Shown: positions 27,303 through 46,846 of the stretch, piece by piece
How the letters are laid out: every line of letters begins with the position of its first letter
Position numbering within the stretch: the first letter of the stretch is position 1
Source: Parcubacteria group bacterium
Lineage (GTDB): Bacteria; Patescibacteriota; Minisyncoccia; Moranbacterales; UBA2206
Direction: 5' to 3'
Length of the DNA: 64,000 nucleotides
Assembly: GCA_041661275.1 (NCBI GenBank)
Contig: JBAZUU010000001.1
Coordinates: 229,057 to 293,056, forward strand
Notes under the pieces: model-generated
Seen by the model: only the letters and a program-made list of their open reading frames with translations
Databases searched by the model: none
Told to the model about the DNA's origin: nothing
Position numbers and translations under genes: made by a program

Positions 27303-27323
27303 CCCAAGTGGTGGGGGATAAAG

Positions 27324-27378
27324 TTAGAGCGCTCCGTTCACATCGGAGAGGTCTCTGGTTCGAGTCCAGATACACCCA
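27324..27378 (+). ncRNA. tRNA-Val(CAC)-like 3' fragment (D-stem 3' strand through acceptor 3' strand) lacking a recognisable 5' half
   Basis: TTAGAGCG-CTCCG-TTCACAT-CGGAG-AGGTC-TCTGG-TTCGAGT-CCAGA-TACACCC-A. Relative to the upstream tRNA-Val it shows compensatory changes in the anticodon and T stems. Confidence 0.5.
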
Positions 27379-42846: not shown

Positions 42847-43152
42847 GCCAGGTTAGCTCAGCGGTAGAGCGAAGGACTGAATTTCGGTCCGTCCGGCAGT
42901 AATGCCGGAATGAAAATTGGGTGAATTCGAGGAAACCTAAGTTGCCGATGAGGCAAAATGGCAATCTCGAGCCAAGTCTTGATGGGCATAGTTTTCAAGA
43001 AAGGTGTAGAGACTAGCGAGTGAGTCCCAACAATAATCTCGCATTAGCGCCCAATATCCTGATGAAGGATAATGAAATAGTCCAATCCTTGGGGAAACTC
43101 AAGAAGGAAAAGGAAAATCCTTGCGTGCCCAGTTCGACTCTGGGACCTGGCA
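42847..43152 (+). tRNA. tRNA-Phe(GAA) split by a group I intron in the anticodon loop
   Basis: Exon 1 is GCCAGGT-TA-GCTCAGCGGTAGAGC-G-AAGGA-CT (42847-42878). Exon 2 is GAAAA-TCCTT-GCGTG-CCCAG-TTCGACT-CTGGG-ACCTGGC-A (43113-43152). Spliced loop is CTGAAAA. Confidence 0.75.
42879..43112 (+). ncRNA. group I intron (234 nt), no ORF
   Basis: The internal guide GGTCC pairs with exon 1 GGACU through a U:G at the splice site, and the intron ends in G. Its core resembles the cyanobacterial tRNA-Leu intron as I recall it (GGAAACCTAA; CTCGAGCCAAGTC; GGTGTAGAGACTAGCG; TAGTCCAATCC). Confidence 0.75.
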
Positions 43153-44240: not shown

Positions 44241-44439
44241 GTGGTACCTCCTTTATTTTTTCCATCAATACATTCGTCACGCTTCTTGATTGTGATAAGA
44301 AGCTTAGCATTATCTTAGGAATAGTCAATATATTTAATACTCGAGTTTAAATAATCCATTATTAGATTCAGTCCTTACTGTACGTACTAGTTAGTTTCAA
44401 AATATTTGAAATCCCCTACGTAGGAGATTTTTGTTTTTT

Positions 44440-44498
44440 GTGGCTTATTTAAGCCATATTAGGTACTTTGATGTATATCAAATGGCTTATTTAAGCCA
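44440..44498. promoter_or_regulatory. two copies of the near-palindrome TGGCTTATTTAAGCCA, 43 nt apart, upstream of the 3D-domain gene
   Basis: Read directly. The arrangement is operator-like. Confidence 0.4.
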
Positions 44499-44622
44499 AA
44501 ATAAGCGAACAGTTGTTGACTACTGGACGGCAATTTGCTATAATGTCCAGTTAGCATGAGAAAGCCTTGAATATGGCTTTTTATGTTAGCCTAGTACCGC
44601 TTAACAAATAACATACTATTTA

Positions 44623-45180
44623 ATGCGTATCATTAGGATTGCGTTGTTACTGACCATATTATTTGTGCCGGTAACTCCTCAGATTGCTCTTGCGGCAACT
44701 GAGCAAGACTCTAATGAAACAAATATAAAATTTAATATAAAAGACGACCTGGTCATTGAAAACGGAGTGATAAAAAATAAGCCTTTCGCTTTTATTAAGG
44801 AAGACTACAAGCCGGTGAAAACTAATCGTGATATAGAAATTGAAAAGATAATTGAGAAATATCACGAAAGACACGAGAGTGCCAGACTTCCCGAAGGACA
44901 ATTCATTATCAACGCTTCAGCGTACACTGCGGCGGCCGATGAATGTGGAAAGTCCGACGGAATTACCGCTTCCGGGCTTATGGTTAAAGAAAATGAAACT
45001 ATCGCTTGTCCTCCGCAGTTTCCATTCGGAACGAAACTACAAATCGACGGAATGGGAACATATATGTGTCAGGACCGTGGTGGAGCCATTAAGGCCAATC
45101 ATATAGACATCTATGTGGAGACTAAAAAGGAAGCTTTCAGTTTCGGAAGACGAAATCTTTTGGCCCAAGTAGTGGAATAA
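44623..45180 (+). CDS. secreted 3D-domain protein (MltA/YuiC/YabE-like cell-wall-binding or lytic-transglycosylase-like)
   Basis: Signal peptide and a C-terminal 3D-domain pattern (GITASGLMV...ACPPQFPFGTKLQIDGMGTYMCQDRGGAIK..HIDIY). Confidence 0.7.
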   Translation: MRIIRIALLLTILFVPVTPQIALAATEQDSNETNIKFNIKDDLVIENGVIKNKPFAFIKEDYKPVKTNRDIEIEKIIEKYHERHESARLPEGQFIINASAYTAAADECGKSDGITASGLMVKENETIACPPQFPFGTKLQIDGMGTYMCQDRGGAIKANHIDIYVETKKEAFSFGRRNLLAQVVE

Positions 45181-45199
45181 AAACAAATTATTAAAGCAA

Positions 45200-45226
45200 G
45201 GGCCTCGCAGTAATGCGGGGTTTTTG
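45200..45226 (+). terminator. intrinsic terminator
   Basis: GGCCTCGCA-GTAA-TGCGGGG followed by TTTTT. Confidence 0.7.
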
Positions 45227-45338
45227 TATTGACAATATGCCGTTGATTACTTAAGCTAGATTAGTATATGACATTGTCGCTCCTTGATAATAACGGTATA
45301 ATATACTATAATTGCAGTATGTAGTATAGCCACCTAAT

Positions 45339-46076
45339 ATGGGCATAAAATATCAGGTCAATGAAAAATTTTTCGATAAATGGTCATTGGAAATGGCATA
45401 TATTCTTGGATATTTGTATGCAGATGGAAGCTTGGAAGATGCGAGTTATTTAAGAGGAAAGTATCTGAGGGTTTCCAGTATAGATAGGGAGTCGATATTG
45501 AAAATAAAGCACTTATTGAACTCCAAACATAAGATTGTCAAAAAGAAAAACTTATCAGGAAACCAGAAGAACTGTTATCTTTTGAGAATTGGAAGTCATG
45601 TTTTATATAACAGACTTATTGAACTAGGGCTGTTCCCGAACAAATCACTTTCGATGAAATTTCCTGATATGCCCGAAAAATATCTGCGTTTTTTTGTCCT
45701 AGGTTATTTTGATGGAGATGGGTGTGTTATGGTGCGCAAGGAGAGAAATAAAAAAGGTGCATTTGTATTAAAAGGGCTTCGCGTTGTGTTTACTTGTGGC
45801 AGTATCGATTTTTTGGAGAAGTTAGCTAAAAGAATAAATAATGCTATCAATACAAAGCAATTAAAAATATATAACGGACATAGATCGTATATGCTTTCTT
45901 ATTCAACAGACGATAGTGTATTGATTTTTAAATTCATATATAATATAAGTAAGCCAATTTTTTTAAAAAGAAAGTTTGTAAAATTCTGTGATTATTTCGA
46001 TTTAAGAATTAATAGAAAGGATAAGTATGTGTGCAAGATAATCGAAAGGTTTAATCTTGGCCGTGTGGCGAAGTAG
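45339..46076 (+). CDS. free-standing double-motif LAGLIDADG homing endonuclease
   Basis: Two LAGLIDADG motifs (LGYLYADGSL and LGYFDGDGCV) about 100 aa apart. The ORF end overlaps tRNA-Cys by about 18 nt. Confidence 0.8.
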   Translation: MGIKYQVNEKFFDKWSLEMAYILGYLYADGSLEDASYLRGKYLRVSSIDRESILKIKHLLNSKHKIVKKKNLSGNQKNCYLLRIGSHVLYNRLIELGLFPNKSLSMKFPDMPEKYLRFFVLGYFDGDGCVMVRKERNKKGAFVLKGLRVVFTCGSIDFLEKLAKRINNAINTKQLKIYNGHRSYMLSYSTDDSVLIFKFIYNISKPIFLKRKFVKFCDYFDLRINRKDKYVCKIIERFNLGRVAK

Positions 46077-46131
46077 TTAACGCGGCGGTCTGCAAAACCG
46101 CTACGCGTGGGTGCAAATCCCACCGCGGCCT
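46059..46131 (+). tRNA. tRNA-Cys(GCA)
   Basis: GGCCGTG-TG-GCG...GCGGT-CTGCAAA-ACCGC...GTGGGTGCAAATCCCAC-CGCGGCC-T. Confidence 0.8.
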
Positions 46132-46140
46132 CAAGATATT

Positions 46141-46224
46141 GCCCAGGTGGTGTAATCGGCAGCCACGCGAGACTTAAAATTTCGTGACCGAAAGGTCGTG
46201 CGGGTTCGAGTCCCGCCCTGGGCA
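46141..46224 (+). tRNA. tRNA-Leu(TAA), intron-less
   Basis: Type II tRNA with anticodon stem CGAGA/TTTCG (one G:U) and loop CTTAAAA. Confidence 0.8.
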
Positions 46225-46227
46225 CGC

Positions 46228-46262
46228 AAAAAAATCGTTCCGATTAGGCGGGACGATTTTAG
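46228..46262. terminator. bidirectional intrinsic terminator (tRNA cluster / udg)
   Basis: A-run, ATCGTTCCG-ATTAGG-CGGGACGAT, then a T-run. Confidence 0.65.
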
Positions 46263-46846
46263 TTTTCTCCGCTTTTTATTTTTTCGATCACCTTAGGGAT
46301 TCGTTTGAAATCTTTGATGAGAACTTCGCGCATACTTCCATTATATAGCGCGGCGGCGGGGTGATAGAGAGTATAGAAAACCTGTTTTCCGATGCCGTCT
46401 ATTTCGCGTCTCTTAGCTTGTCCGTGAATTTTGGATATTAGCATTCCGGGTAAAAACCTTTCCATCGAATGTCGGCCGAGTGTGACAATTAATTTAGGCT
46501 CAATAATTCTTATCTGTTCCAGAAGCCATGGCCAGCAAGACGCGACTTCGTCAGGCAGGGGATCACGGTTTTGCGGCGGACGGCATTTGACGACGTTGGC
46601 GATATAGACATCTTCACGTTTCAAATTAATAATACCGAGCATCTCGTCTAGAAATTTTCCAGCGGCTCCTACGAATGGCCGTCCCAATTCGTCTTCCTTG
46701 GCACCAGGTCCTTCACCGATGAACATAATTTCAGCTTCCGCATTGCCTTCGCCCGGAACGACATTCTTGCAACTCGTGCGCAAAACGCATTGGGAGCACG
46801 CTGTCATTTTTTTATTCAATTCTTCAAGAAGTTGTTGTTTAGACAT
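46259..46846 (-). CDS. uracil-DNA glycosylase, family 4 (4Fe-4S type)
   Basis: GEGPGAKEDELGRPFVGAAGKFL and the Cys ligands (C..C ... C). Confidence 0.85.
   Translation of the reverse strand: MSKQQLLEELNKKMTACSQCVLRTSCKNVVPGEGNAEAEIMFIGEGPGAKEDELGRPFVGAAGKFLDEMLGIINLKREDVYIANVVKCRPPQNRDPLPDEVASCWPWLLEQIRIIEPKLIVTLGRHSMERFLPGMLISKIHGQAKRREIDGIGKQVFYTLYHPAAALYNGSMREVLIKDFKRIPKVIEKIKSGEN

Follow-up and report, generated by a model that had tools for sequence, protein, structure and literature searches.

The window, a 64,000-nt stretch of a Parcubacteria group bacterium contig (JBAZUU010000001.1, assembly GCA_041661275.1), contains an open reading frame (ORF) for a LAGLIDADG homing endonuclease located between a gene for a 3D-domain protein and the adjacent genes for tRNA-Cys(GCA) and tRNA-Leu(UAA) (Table 1). 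The encoded protein matches Pfam LAGLIDADG_3 in two stretches (E 1.2e-10) and LAGLIDADG_1 (E 7.6e-5), with both matches exceeding the curated cut-offs. The initial annotation of this DNA had described a free-standing gene of 245 amino acids (aa) with two LAGLIDADG motifs, lying outside any recognizable intron or intein and overlapping the tRNA-Cys–tRNA-Leu(UAA) pair by about 18 nt, and each of these statements is upheld here. Both catalytic aspartates, D29 and D127, are intact. The overlap is exactly 18 nt, with the stop codon of the endonuclease gene forming nucleotides 16 to 18 of tRNA-Cys, so that the first 18 nt of the tRNA encode the last five residues of the protein, GRVAK, plus the stop codon. 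A public gene call for the same contig predicts a 227-aa protein starting at Met19 of the 245-aa ORF. Because residues K4, V7, F12, and W15 within the first 18 are kept across the endonuclease homologues, position 45339 is taken to be the real start, and public gene calls that begin at Met19 start the ORF too late, an annotation error.

Table 1 Features of the endonuclease–tRNA locus and of the related elements elsewhere in the window.
Feature	Position in window	Strand	Details
3D-domain gene, upstream neighbor	44623..45180		
Terminator-like hairpin and T-run of the 3D-domain gene	45203..45225	+	Read from the sequence; not listed by the hairpin scan
Sigma-70-type promoter-like site TTGATA-17-TATAAT	45284..45312	+	11/12 matches
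Conserved family motif TTGCAGTAT-N-ATAGCCACCTAAT, directly 5' of the start codon	45312..45338	+	
LAGLIDADG homing endonuclease gene, single chain, two domains	45339..46076	+	245 aa; ATG start; stop TAG 46074-46076
First LAGLIDADG motif ILGYLYADG, residues 22-30	45402..45428	+	Asp29 codon 45423-45425
Second LAGLIDADG motif VLGYFDGDG, residues 120-128	45696..45722	+	Asp127 codon 45717-45719
Weak promoter-like site TAGAAA-18-GATAAT inside the ORF 3' end, 16 nt 5' of tRNA-Cys	46013..46042	+	9/12 matches
tRNA-Cys(GCA)	46059..46132	+	ARAGORN and Rfam (61.8 bits); complete
tRNA-Leu(UAA), usual partner 3' of tRNA-Cys in the phylum	46141..46225	+	ARAGORN and Rfam
Terminator-like hairpin closing the endonuclease–tRNA-Cys–tRNA-Leu unit	46231..46260	+	Hairpin scan; inverted repeat I13
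Group I intron RF00028	42869..43104		Rfam, 87.4 bits; between tRNA-Val(UAC) and tRNA-Gly(GCC)
GyrA ORF with intein, 1206 aa	17264..20884		Intein_splicing E 2e-22, residues ~123-504

The product of this gene looks like a working monomeric two-domain LAGLIDADG homing endonuclease, with cleavage activity predicted from its sequence and modeled structure. In an alignment of the family, all 199 members have D29, D127, and the glycines of both motifs, and 198 of the 199 have K102. The ratio of nonsynonymous to synonymous substitution rates (dN/dS) is 0.06 to 0.20 for family pairs with unsaturated synonymous sites, which points to strong purifying selection; synonymous sites are saturated for the window versus L001 and versus L002, and the ratio rests on other pairs. 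An AlphaFold2 model generated from 25 homologues (predicted local distance difference test score (pLDDT) 89, predicted template modeling score 0.88) has two alpha-beta-beta-alpha-beta-beta-alpha domains, with the helices and strands in the order expected for LAGLIDADG enzymes. The only disordered part of the model is the tRNA-encoded tail, residues 241-245, where pLDDT is <50. A Foldseek search of the PDB returned the archaeal enzyme I-Tsp061I (2dch) as the top match, with E 1.4e-9, followed by I-AabMI, an intein endonuclease domain, I-AniI, I-SceI, and the I-OnuI group. There are 101 PDB matches at E <= 0.001, and the best 50 of the 101, which are those listed, are all LAGLIDADG enzymes, maturases, or intein endonuclease domains. 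The structure 2dch is also the sole PDB match by sequence profile (E 1.2e-5, ~20% identity).

To place the gene in a family, a scan with one genome per species detected relatives in at least 394 stretches, with proteins 43 to 65% identical, and the best 80 of these 394 loci were examined. The initial annotation held free-standing LAGLIDADG genes to be uncommon in bacteria, but with at least 394 species genomes carrying a member of this family, genes of this type are not rare in Patescibacteria. A protein search yielded 516 homologues, the best 120 of which are 50 to 65% identical and 202 to 282 aa long, with most at 220 to 260 aa; in this search the homologues with a named source all come from Parcubacteria, Patescibacteria, Moranbacteria, or Taylorbacteria. 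Metagenome-assembled genomes account for every one of the best 80 loci; most bear Patescibacteria labels and a few bear other automatic labels, taken to be mislabeling, and the lineages include Moranbacteria, Nomurabacteria, Yanofskybacteria, Kaiserbacteria, Taylorbacteria, Magasanikbacteria, Levybacteria, Falkowbacteria, Doudnabacteria, and others. Public records label such ORFs as generic LAGLIDADG endonuclease or hypothetical protein.

Throughout the family, the endonuclease gene occupies a fixed position relative to a single tRNA gene. In 78 of the 80 loci, a tRNA-Cys(GCA) on the same strand starts between -23 and +24 nt from the end of the ORF, and the remaining two loci are cut by contig ends. 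The adjoining tRNA-Cys is thus a hallmark of the family and is not incidental. The spacing between the codon for the conserved Arg211 and tRNA position +1 has a median of 87 nt (interquartile range 80-90 nt), and the gene on the other side varies by lineage, being the 3D-domain gene in the window's group and infB-rbfA in ~38 Paceibacteria-type loci. The stop codon lies inside tRNA-Cys in 54 of 79 loci, of which 28 share the window's 18-nt overlap with TAG in the D loop, and just 5' of tRNA-Cys in the other 25. Because the tail is disordered in the model and these 25 members stop just before the tRNA, the use of a stop codon within the tRNA looks to be a side effect of compaction. We found no description of a tRNA-Cys-linked family in the full-text literature, although our search was thin on subscription journals and the family may be described elsewhere. 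The apparent novelty lies in an association with tRNA-Cys that holds at the nucleotide level across the family, together with the comparative evidence that the gene and the tRNA move as one unit.

Comparing relatives for presence or absence of the gene revealed empty sites with conserved flanks (L106, L283, and L284). In L106, infB-rbfA is followed after 40 nt by tRNA-Cys-Leu(UAA)-Lys-Leu(UAG). Its RbfA is 84% and its IF-2 73% identical to those of the occupied loci L027, L033, and L024, as close as occupied loci are to each other, and by these two proteins L106 nests among them. UDG homologues with 85 to 87% identity mark loci with the order 3D gene, tRNA-Cys, tRNA-Leu(UAA), UDG, and in L283, L284, and the contig carrying P0121, the space between the 3D gene and UDG holds only the two tRNAs and no endonuclease gene. 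In L283, ~180 nt separate the 3D gene from tRNA-Cys. Alignment of the window with L283 by blastn gives 78.8% identity over 44531-45229 and 77.8% over 46221-46789, with the homology broken from 45230 to ~46086, and the left end of this break lies just past the terminator-like hairpin of the 3D-domain gene. Judging by this alignment, the insertion is a simple intergenic one between a protein gene and a tRNA. The flanks of the window are 78 to 79% identical to the empty L283 and L284 versus 68 to 70% identical to the occupied L001 and L002, and these empty close relatives suggest that the gene was gained or lost in the window's lineage.

The similarity between endonucleases is in several cases far out of proportion to that between their host genes. 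The endonucleases of L032 and L042 are 83% identical while their IF-2 proteins are 48% identical, and the corresponding values are 78% versus 46% for L034 and L029, and 72% versus 47% for L045 and L032. In pairs of loci that look vertically inherited the relationship is reversed, with 63% for the endonuclease versus 80% for IF-2 in L028 and L048, and 64% versus 79% in L047 and L080. L032 and L042 share an island of ~975 nt with 80% nucleotide identity that extends from 130 nt 5' of the ORF to 64 nt past tRNA-Cys, and their flanks outside the island are barely alignable. The tRNA-Cys sequences of L032, L033, and L042 are identical. A similar relationship is seen near the window: between the occupied L002 and the empty L283, tRNA-Leu is 92% identical but tRNA-Cys only 76%, while the window's tRNA-Cys is 96% identical to that of L002 versus 74% to that of L283. 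Therefore, the tRNA-Cys allele seems to travel with the endonuclease gene.

We looked for target duplications and terminal repeats around the ORF and found none, which rules out a transposon. A search upstream of the ORF for an integration scar, in the form of a leftover copy of the tRNA-Cys 5' end, also detected none. As a rough guide only to occupancy, a metagenome scan by anticodon-arm pattern, which recovered loci mostly without Patescibacteria-type gene order or composition, found the endonuclease gene upstream in 0 of 15 low-GC tRNA-Cys/tRNA-Leu(UAA) loci. Together, the empty sites, the discordant identities, the linkage to the tRNA, the lack of transposon features, and the low occupancy fit homing with co-conversion and not a core gene. 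The initial annotation had argued for active mobile elements in this genome; the comparisons demonstrate mobility of the family over evolutionary time and, through empty sites in close relatives, mobility in this lineage, but do not extend to current activity in this genome.

The sequences preceding the ORF suggest that the inserted DNA brings its own promoter, which is not found at empty sites. In the window, the sigma-70-type promoter-like site predicts a transcript start near 45319 and a leader of ~20 nt without a Shine-Dalgarno sequence. The conserved motif that follows this site occurs in 32 of 68 occupied upstream regions but in none of 106 tRNA-Cys upstream regions that lack an endonuclease gene, and takes two arrangements. 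In 31 loci its TGCAG is at -34/-35 and reads TTGCAG-17-TATAAT, located 6 nt ahead of a GTG start; this layout, typical of most Paceibacteria-type relatives, resembles a promoter from which a leaderless mRNA would be made. A further 14 loci, including the window, have TGCAG at -26/-27 of an ATG, with a separate TATAAT immediately ahead of the motif. An ancestral tRNA-Cys promoter was considered as the source of the motif and ruled out by the 0/106 count. A mirror of the tRNA 5' end, and hence a possible operator, was likewise rejected, as only a 5-mer is common to the two and inspection by eye revealed no covariation with the tRNA.

A second set of candidate signals lies within the coding sequence. 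The final 45 nt of the ORF contain a promoter-like site at 38% of family loci, compared with 9% of control windows within the ORF; the sequence is often TTGATA-18-TACAAT, and the weak site in the window may act as an internal promoter for the tRNAs. Empty sites have ordinary promoter-like hexamers 8 to 25 nt 5' of tRNA-Cys. Therefore, insertion of the endonuclease gene would displace the native tRNA-Cys promoter.

From these observations, we consider it probable that the locus harbors a free-standing LAGLIDADG homing cassette directly 5' of tRNA-Cys, consisting of a promoter, the 245-aa ORF, and, for practical purposes, the tRNA-Cys allele next to it. In this process, the monomeric two-domain enzyme would cut cassette-less genomes at or close to the point where the upstream flank meets the tRNA-Cys 5' end. 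The break would be repaired by recombination from an occupied allele, which would copy in the cassette and usually co-convert the neighboring tRNA-Cys, and occupied alleles would be protected because the insertion splits the target site. The cassette would displace the native tRNA-Cys promoter, leaving the tRNAs to be transcribed from the cassette promoter or from the promoter-like site in the ORF 3' end. With no room for a terminator or stop of its own, the ORF of most members would be read into the tRNA until a stop codon is met. We infer cleavage activity, target position, promoter use, and protection of occupied alleles. The target is placed near tRNA-Cys +1 because the insertion has a constant right boundary, at the 5' end of the tRNA, and is probably not the tRNA alone because occupied and empty tRNA-Cys sequences can be almost identical. 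The initial annotation had guessed at a tRNA or intron-insertion site as the target; a tRNA locus is indeed likelier than a protein gene, but tRNA-Cys, and not tRNA-Phe or tRNA-Leu, is the relevant one.

Several observations weigh against homing by such a cassette. The occupied loci L001, L002, L003, L005, and L013 are syntenic with the window and align across the region without an island of higher identity, and recent inheritance within the window's occupied group looks vertical. A cycle of gain, decay, and loss predicts many decayed copies, but 78 of the 80 sampled copies are intact, although taking the best 80 of 394 loci favors intact ones. Moreover, the tRNA-Cys sequences of occupied and empty loci can be nearly identical, as for L108 versus L012 and L015, and therefore the tRNA sequence alone cannot protect occupied alleles.

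A bolder possibility, which we hold only tentatively and think doubtful, is that the unit is a composite selfish element made of the LAGLIDADG endonuclease plus its own tRNA-Cys allele. If so, the resident tRNA-Cys and its promoter would have been replaced, an essential tRNA would depend on the element, and the element would be hard to lose. With the stop codon inside the tRNA, processing by RNase P would yield an endonuclease mRNA without a stop codon. Nuclease output would then be tied to tRNA maturation and ribosome rescue, which would limit a potentially toxic enzyme.

Two alternatives retain the gene for reasons other than homing. In the first, the protein is domesticated and required by the host, either supplying a promoter and leader or acting as a DNA-binding regulator of the essential tRNA-Cys operon, and is inherited mainly vertically. 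The endonuclease is indeed better conserved than its neighbors, with a mean identity of 52 to 54% versus ~46% for RbfA and for the C-terminal part of IF-2 at the same loci, and intact ORFs in 78 of 80 loci and strong purifying selection would be expected of a host gene. The displaced native promoter, the enrichment of promoter-like sites in the ORF 3' end, and the retention of the upstream motif even where it is a misfit as a promoter, as in the window type, also suit a role at the tRNA operon. However, empty sites nested among occupied relatives indicate that the gene is dispensable. The 15 low-GC metagenome loci had no copy upstream. The discordance between endonuclease and host identities and the shared nucleotide island point to horizontal transfer. 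Both catalytic aspartates are invariant, which pure DNA binding would not need, and no WhiA or helix-turn-helix (HTH) Pfam domain was matched in the protein. Domestication is therefore unlikely in our view.

In the second alternative, the family was once mobile and the window's copy is now a resident relic, a vertical passenger without targets that is kept since its deletion would endanger the single tRNA-Cys and its promoter. The end-to-end alignment of the syntenic occupied loci described above favors this explanation, as does the position of the ORF, which overlaps the tRNA and sits between promoter and tRNA. On the other hand, the ORF is intact with all conserved residues present, and dN/dS is low even though the overlap cannot shield the remainder of the coding sequence against inactivation by mutation. 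The relatives most similar in flanking DNA have empty sites, so that targets exist in nature and gain or loss happened in the lineage. A relic of this kind thus seems improbable.

The initial annotation had also connected the gene with a group I intron in tRNA-Phe and an intein in GyrA, and both of these elements are real. The intron, at 42869-43104, is too short for an endonuclease ORF; it occupies the place of the uninterrupted tRNA-Phe of relatives, ARAGORN calls no tRNA-Phe there, and L007 aligns to it at 76%. In the GyrA ORF, no LAGLIDADG Pfam match was found at E <= 0.001. That the endonuclease is an ordinary intron- or intein-encoded enzyme, or acts in trans for the tRNA-Phe intron, is very hard to credit: although the intron lies 2.2 kb upstream, an intein is present in the window, and an archaeal rRNA intron encodes the nearest relative of solved structure, an Rfam scan of 44300-46400 at gathering and permissive (E up to 10) thresholds matched no intron and only the two tRNAs, the downstream tRNA-Cys is complete, a promoter-like site precedes the ORF and a terminator-like hairpin closes the upstream gene, the empty-site comparison indicates a simple intergenic insertion bounded by a protein gene and a tRNA, the endonuclease has no sequence similarity to the GyrA ORF with its intein, and the link to tRNA-Cys is kept where tRNA-Phe is uninterrupted (L005, L030, L066, and L067). 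The last of these findings also removes the proposed tie between the endonuclease gene and the tRNA-Phe intron.

Among characterized systems, SegB of phage T4 may be regarded as the closest functional analogue of the homing cassette. SegB is a free-standing GIY-YIG homing endonuclease in the phage T4 tRNA gene cluster, conserved tRNA sequence forms part of its site, and it propagates its own gene along with surrounding tRNA genes (PMC2330249). The resemblance lies in a free-standing gene within a tRNA cluster and, for the window's family, in comparative evidence that the gene and the tRNA-Cys allele move together. In contrast to SegB, with its GIY-YIG fold and catalysis, the window's protein has only LAGLIDADG Pfam domains and is encoded on a cellular chromosome and not in a phage genome. 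SegB is also not fused to one tRNA, whereas the genes of the window's family adjoin the 5' end of tRNA-Cys and in many cases terminate within it. The window's gene is accordingly viewed as an analogue and not as a member of the SegB family.

In fold and in sequence, the window's protein groups with the single-chain LAGLIDADG enzymes. I-Tsp061I, the best PDB match by both sequence and structure, is likewise a monomer with two LAGLIDADG domains that belongs to Pfam LAGLIDADG_3. It is encoded in an archaeal rRNA intron, whereas the window's gene stands alone behind a promoter-like site of its own. The two proteins are only ~20% identical, and the window's protein has an extra C-terminal helical segment, with helices in residues 190-238 of the model. 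Within the phylum, LAGLIDADG genes, including that of I-ShaI, occur in 16S and 23S rRNA insertions of Candidate Phyla Radiation/Patescibacteria, and almost all encode single-domain, homodimeric enzymes (PMC11270868). Many of the host insertions are like group I introns, with a mixture of vertical inheritance and site-specific homing (PMC11270868). Mostly single-domain LAGLIDADG genes within 16S and 23S insertions of the phylum were described elsewhere too (PMC8172020; PMC11809585; PMC7143001). In PMC11270868, the most complete survey, the word tRNA is absent. The window's family shares the phylum and the enzyme superfamily with I-ShaI-type enzymes but is two-domain, free-standing, and tRNA-Cys-linked. 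WhiA-type proteins differ in having a degenerate LAGLIDADG domain without catalytic residues and a C-terminal HTH domain, while the window's protein keeps the aspartate pair and has no HTH domain.

Phages also carry relatives of the endonuclease. The protein matches phrog_4645 (E 4.6e-44), with residues 3-213 aligned to profile positions 92-297 of 308 and the N-terminal part of the profile absent, and viral contigs contain hundreds of relatives at 26 to 37% identity. Any tRNA is present within 3 kb in only 3 of 80 phage-relative loci; the phage relatives are not tRNA-associated, and we rejected a phage origin of the tRNA link. One of these three is on a 427-kb viral contig, of jumbo-phage size, which encodes a 32%-identity relative (L204:3001-3648) located 72 nt 5' of tRNA-Trp in a tRNA cluster.

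Much is known about the free-standing homing endonucleases of phages and about the LAGLIDADG enzymes of introns and inteins. The family described here would add a chromosomal, free-standing LAGLIDADG lineage that is locked to the 5' end of one tRNA across a bacterial phylum and apparently carries the tRNA allele with it, a selfish gene hitchhiking on a presumably essential tRNA gene. The family also indicates DNA exchange and recombination among ultrasmall, host-dependent bacteria. It offers a means of examining whether nuclease expression is coupled to tRNA processing. Finally, with hundreds of diverged, related monomeric meganucleases that probably have a related target, it offers material for studying the evolution of specificity and for enzyme engineering.

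The tRNA-Cys genes themselves vary in a way that affects the overlap. Inspection by eye of L001-L200 indicated that tRNA-Cys sequences with A replacing the first G of the D-loop GG (GTAG or GCAG) carry a TGCRA rather than a TTCRA T loop. This pattern resembles 18/55 covariation, A18 with G55, and creates the TAG stop codon within the tRNA; the window's tRNA-Cys has A18 in the D loop and G55 in the T loop. We considered the A18/G55 variant as a marker of occupied alleles or of immunity and rejected it, as the empty L106, L108, and L138 have the variant, as do other metagenome contigs of low and of higher GC content, and L005-L011 are occupied with a canonical tRNA-Cys.

Other endonuclease genes were seen at the neighboring tRNA. 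HNH genes for proteins of ~165 aa lie between tRNA-Cys and tRNA-Leu(UAA), directly 5' of tRNA-Leu, in L037 (4802-5419), L282 (4717-5211, minus strand), and the P0127 contig (4364-4855). The open frame in L037 runs into tRNA-Leu and its product matches Pfam HNH_3 and HNH, and the L282 protein is similar by eye. A distant LAGLIDADG relative is found 3' of tRNA-Cys in L071 (3678-4343), ending ~10 nt before tRNA-Leu(UAA), and LAGLIDADG ORFs 3' of tRNA-Cys in L125 (553-1050) and L155 (1556-2026), ~41% identical over the aligned part, are cut by contig ends. These three loci suggest a second insertion site at the 5' flank of the neighboring tRNA. Small GIY-YIG genes are located between tRNA-Cys and tRNA-Leu(UAA) in L049 (2027-2299), ending ~5 nt before the tRNA, and near the tRNA cluster in L283 (6256-6501). 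Catalytic domains of three homing-endonuclease families are thus found at tRNA 5' flanks in these genomes. If the window's unit is a composite element, the HNH, GIY-YIG, and other LAGLIDADG genes would imply that homing endonucleases of the phylum may use tRNA 5' ends as a general landing site.

Elsewhere in the window, a weak Rfam tRNA match (34.9 bits) at 27314-27378 lies right after tRNA-Val(CAC) and is not called by ARAGORN; it may be a degenerate or unusual tRNA.

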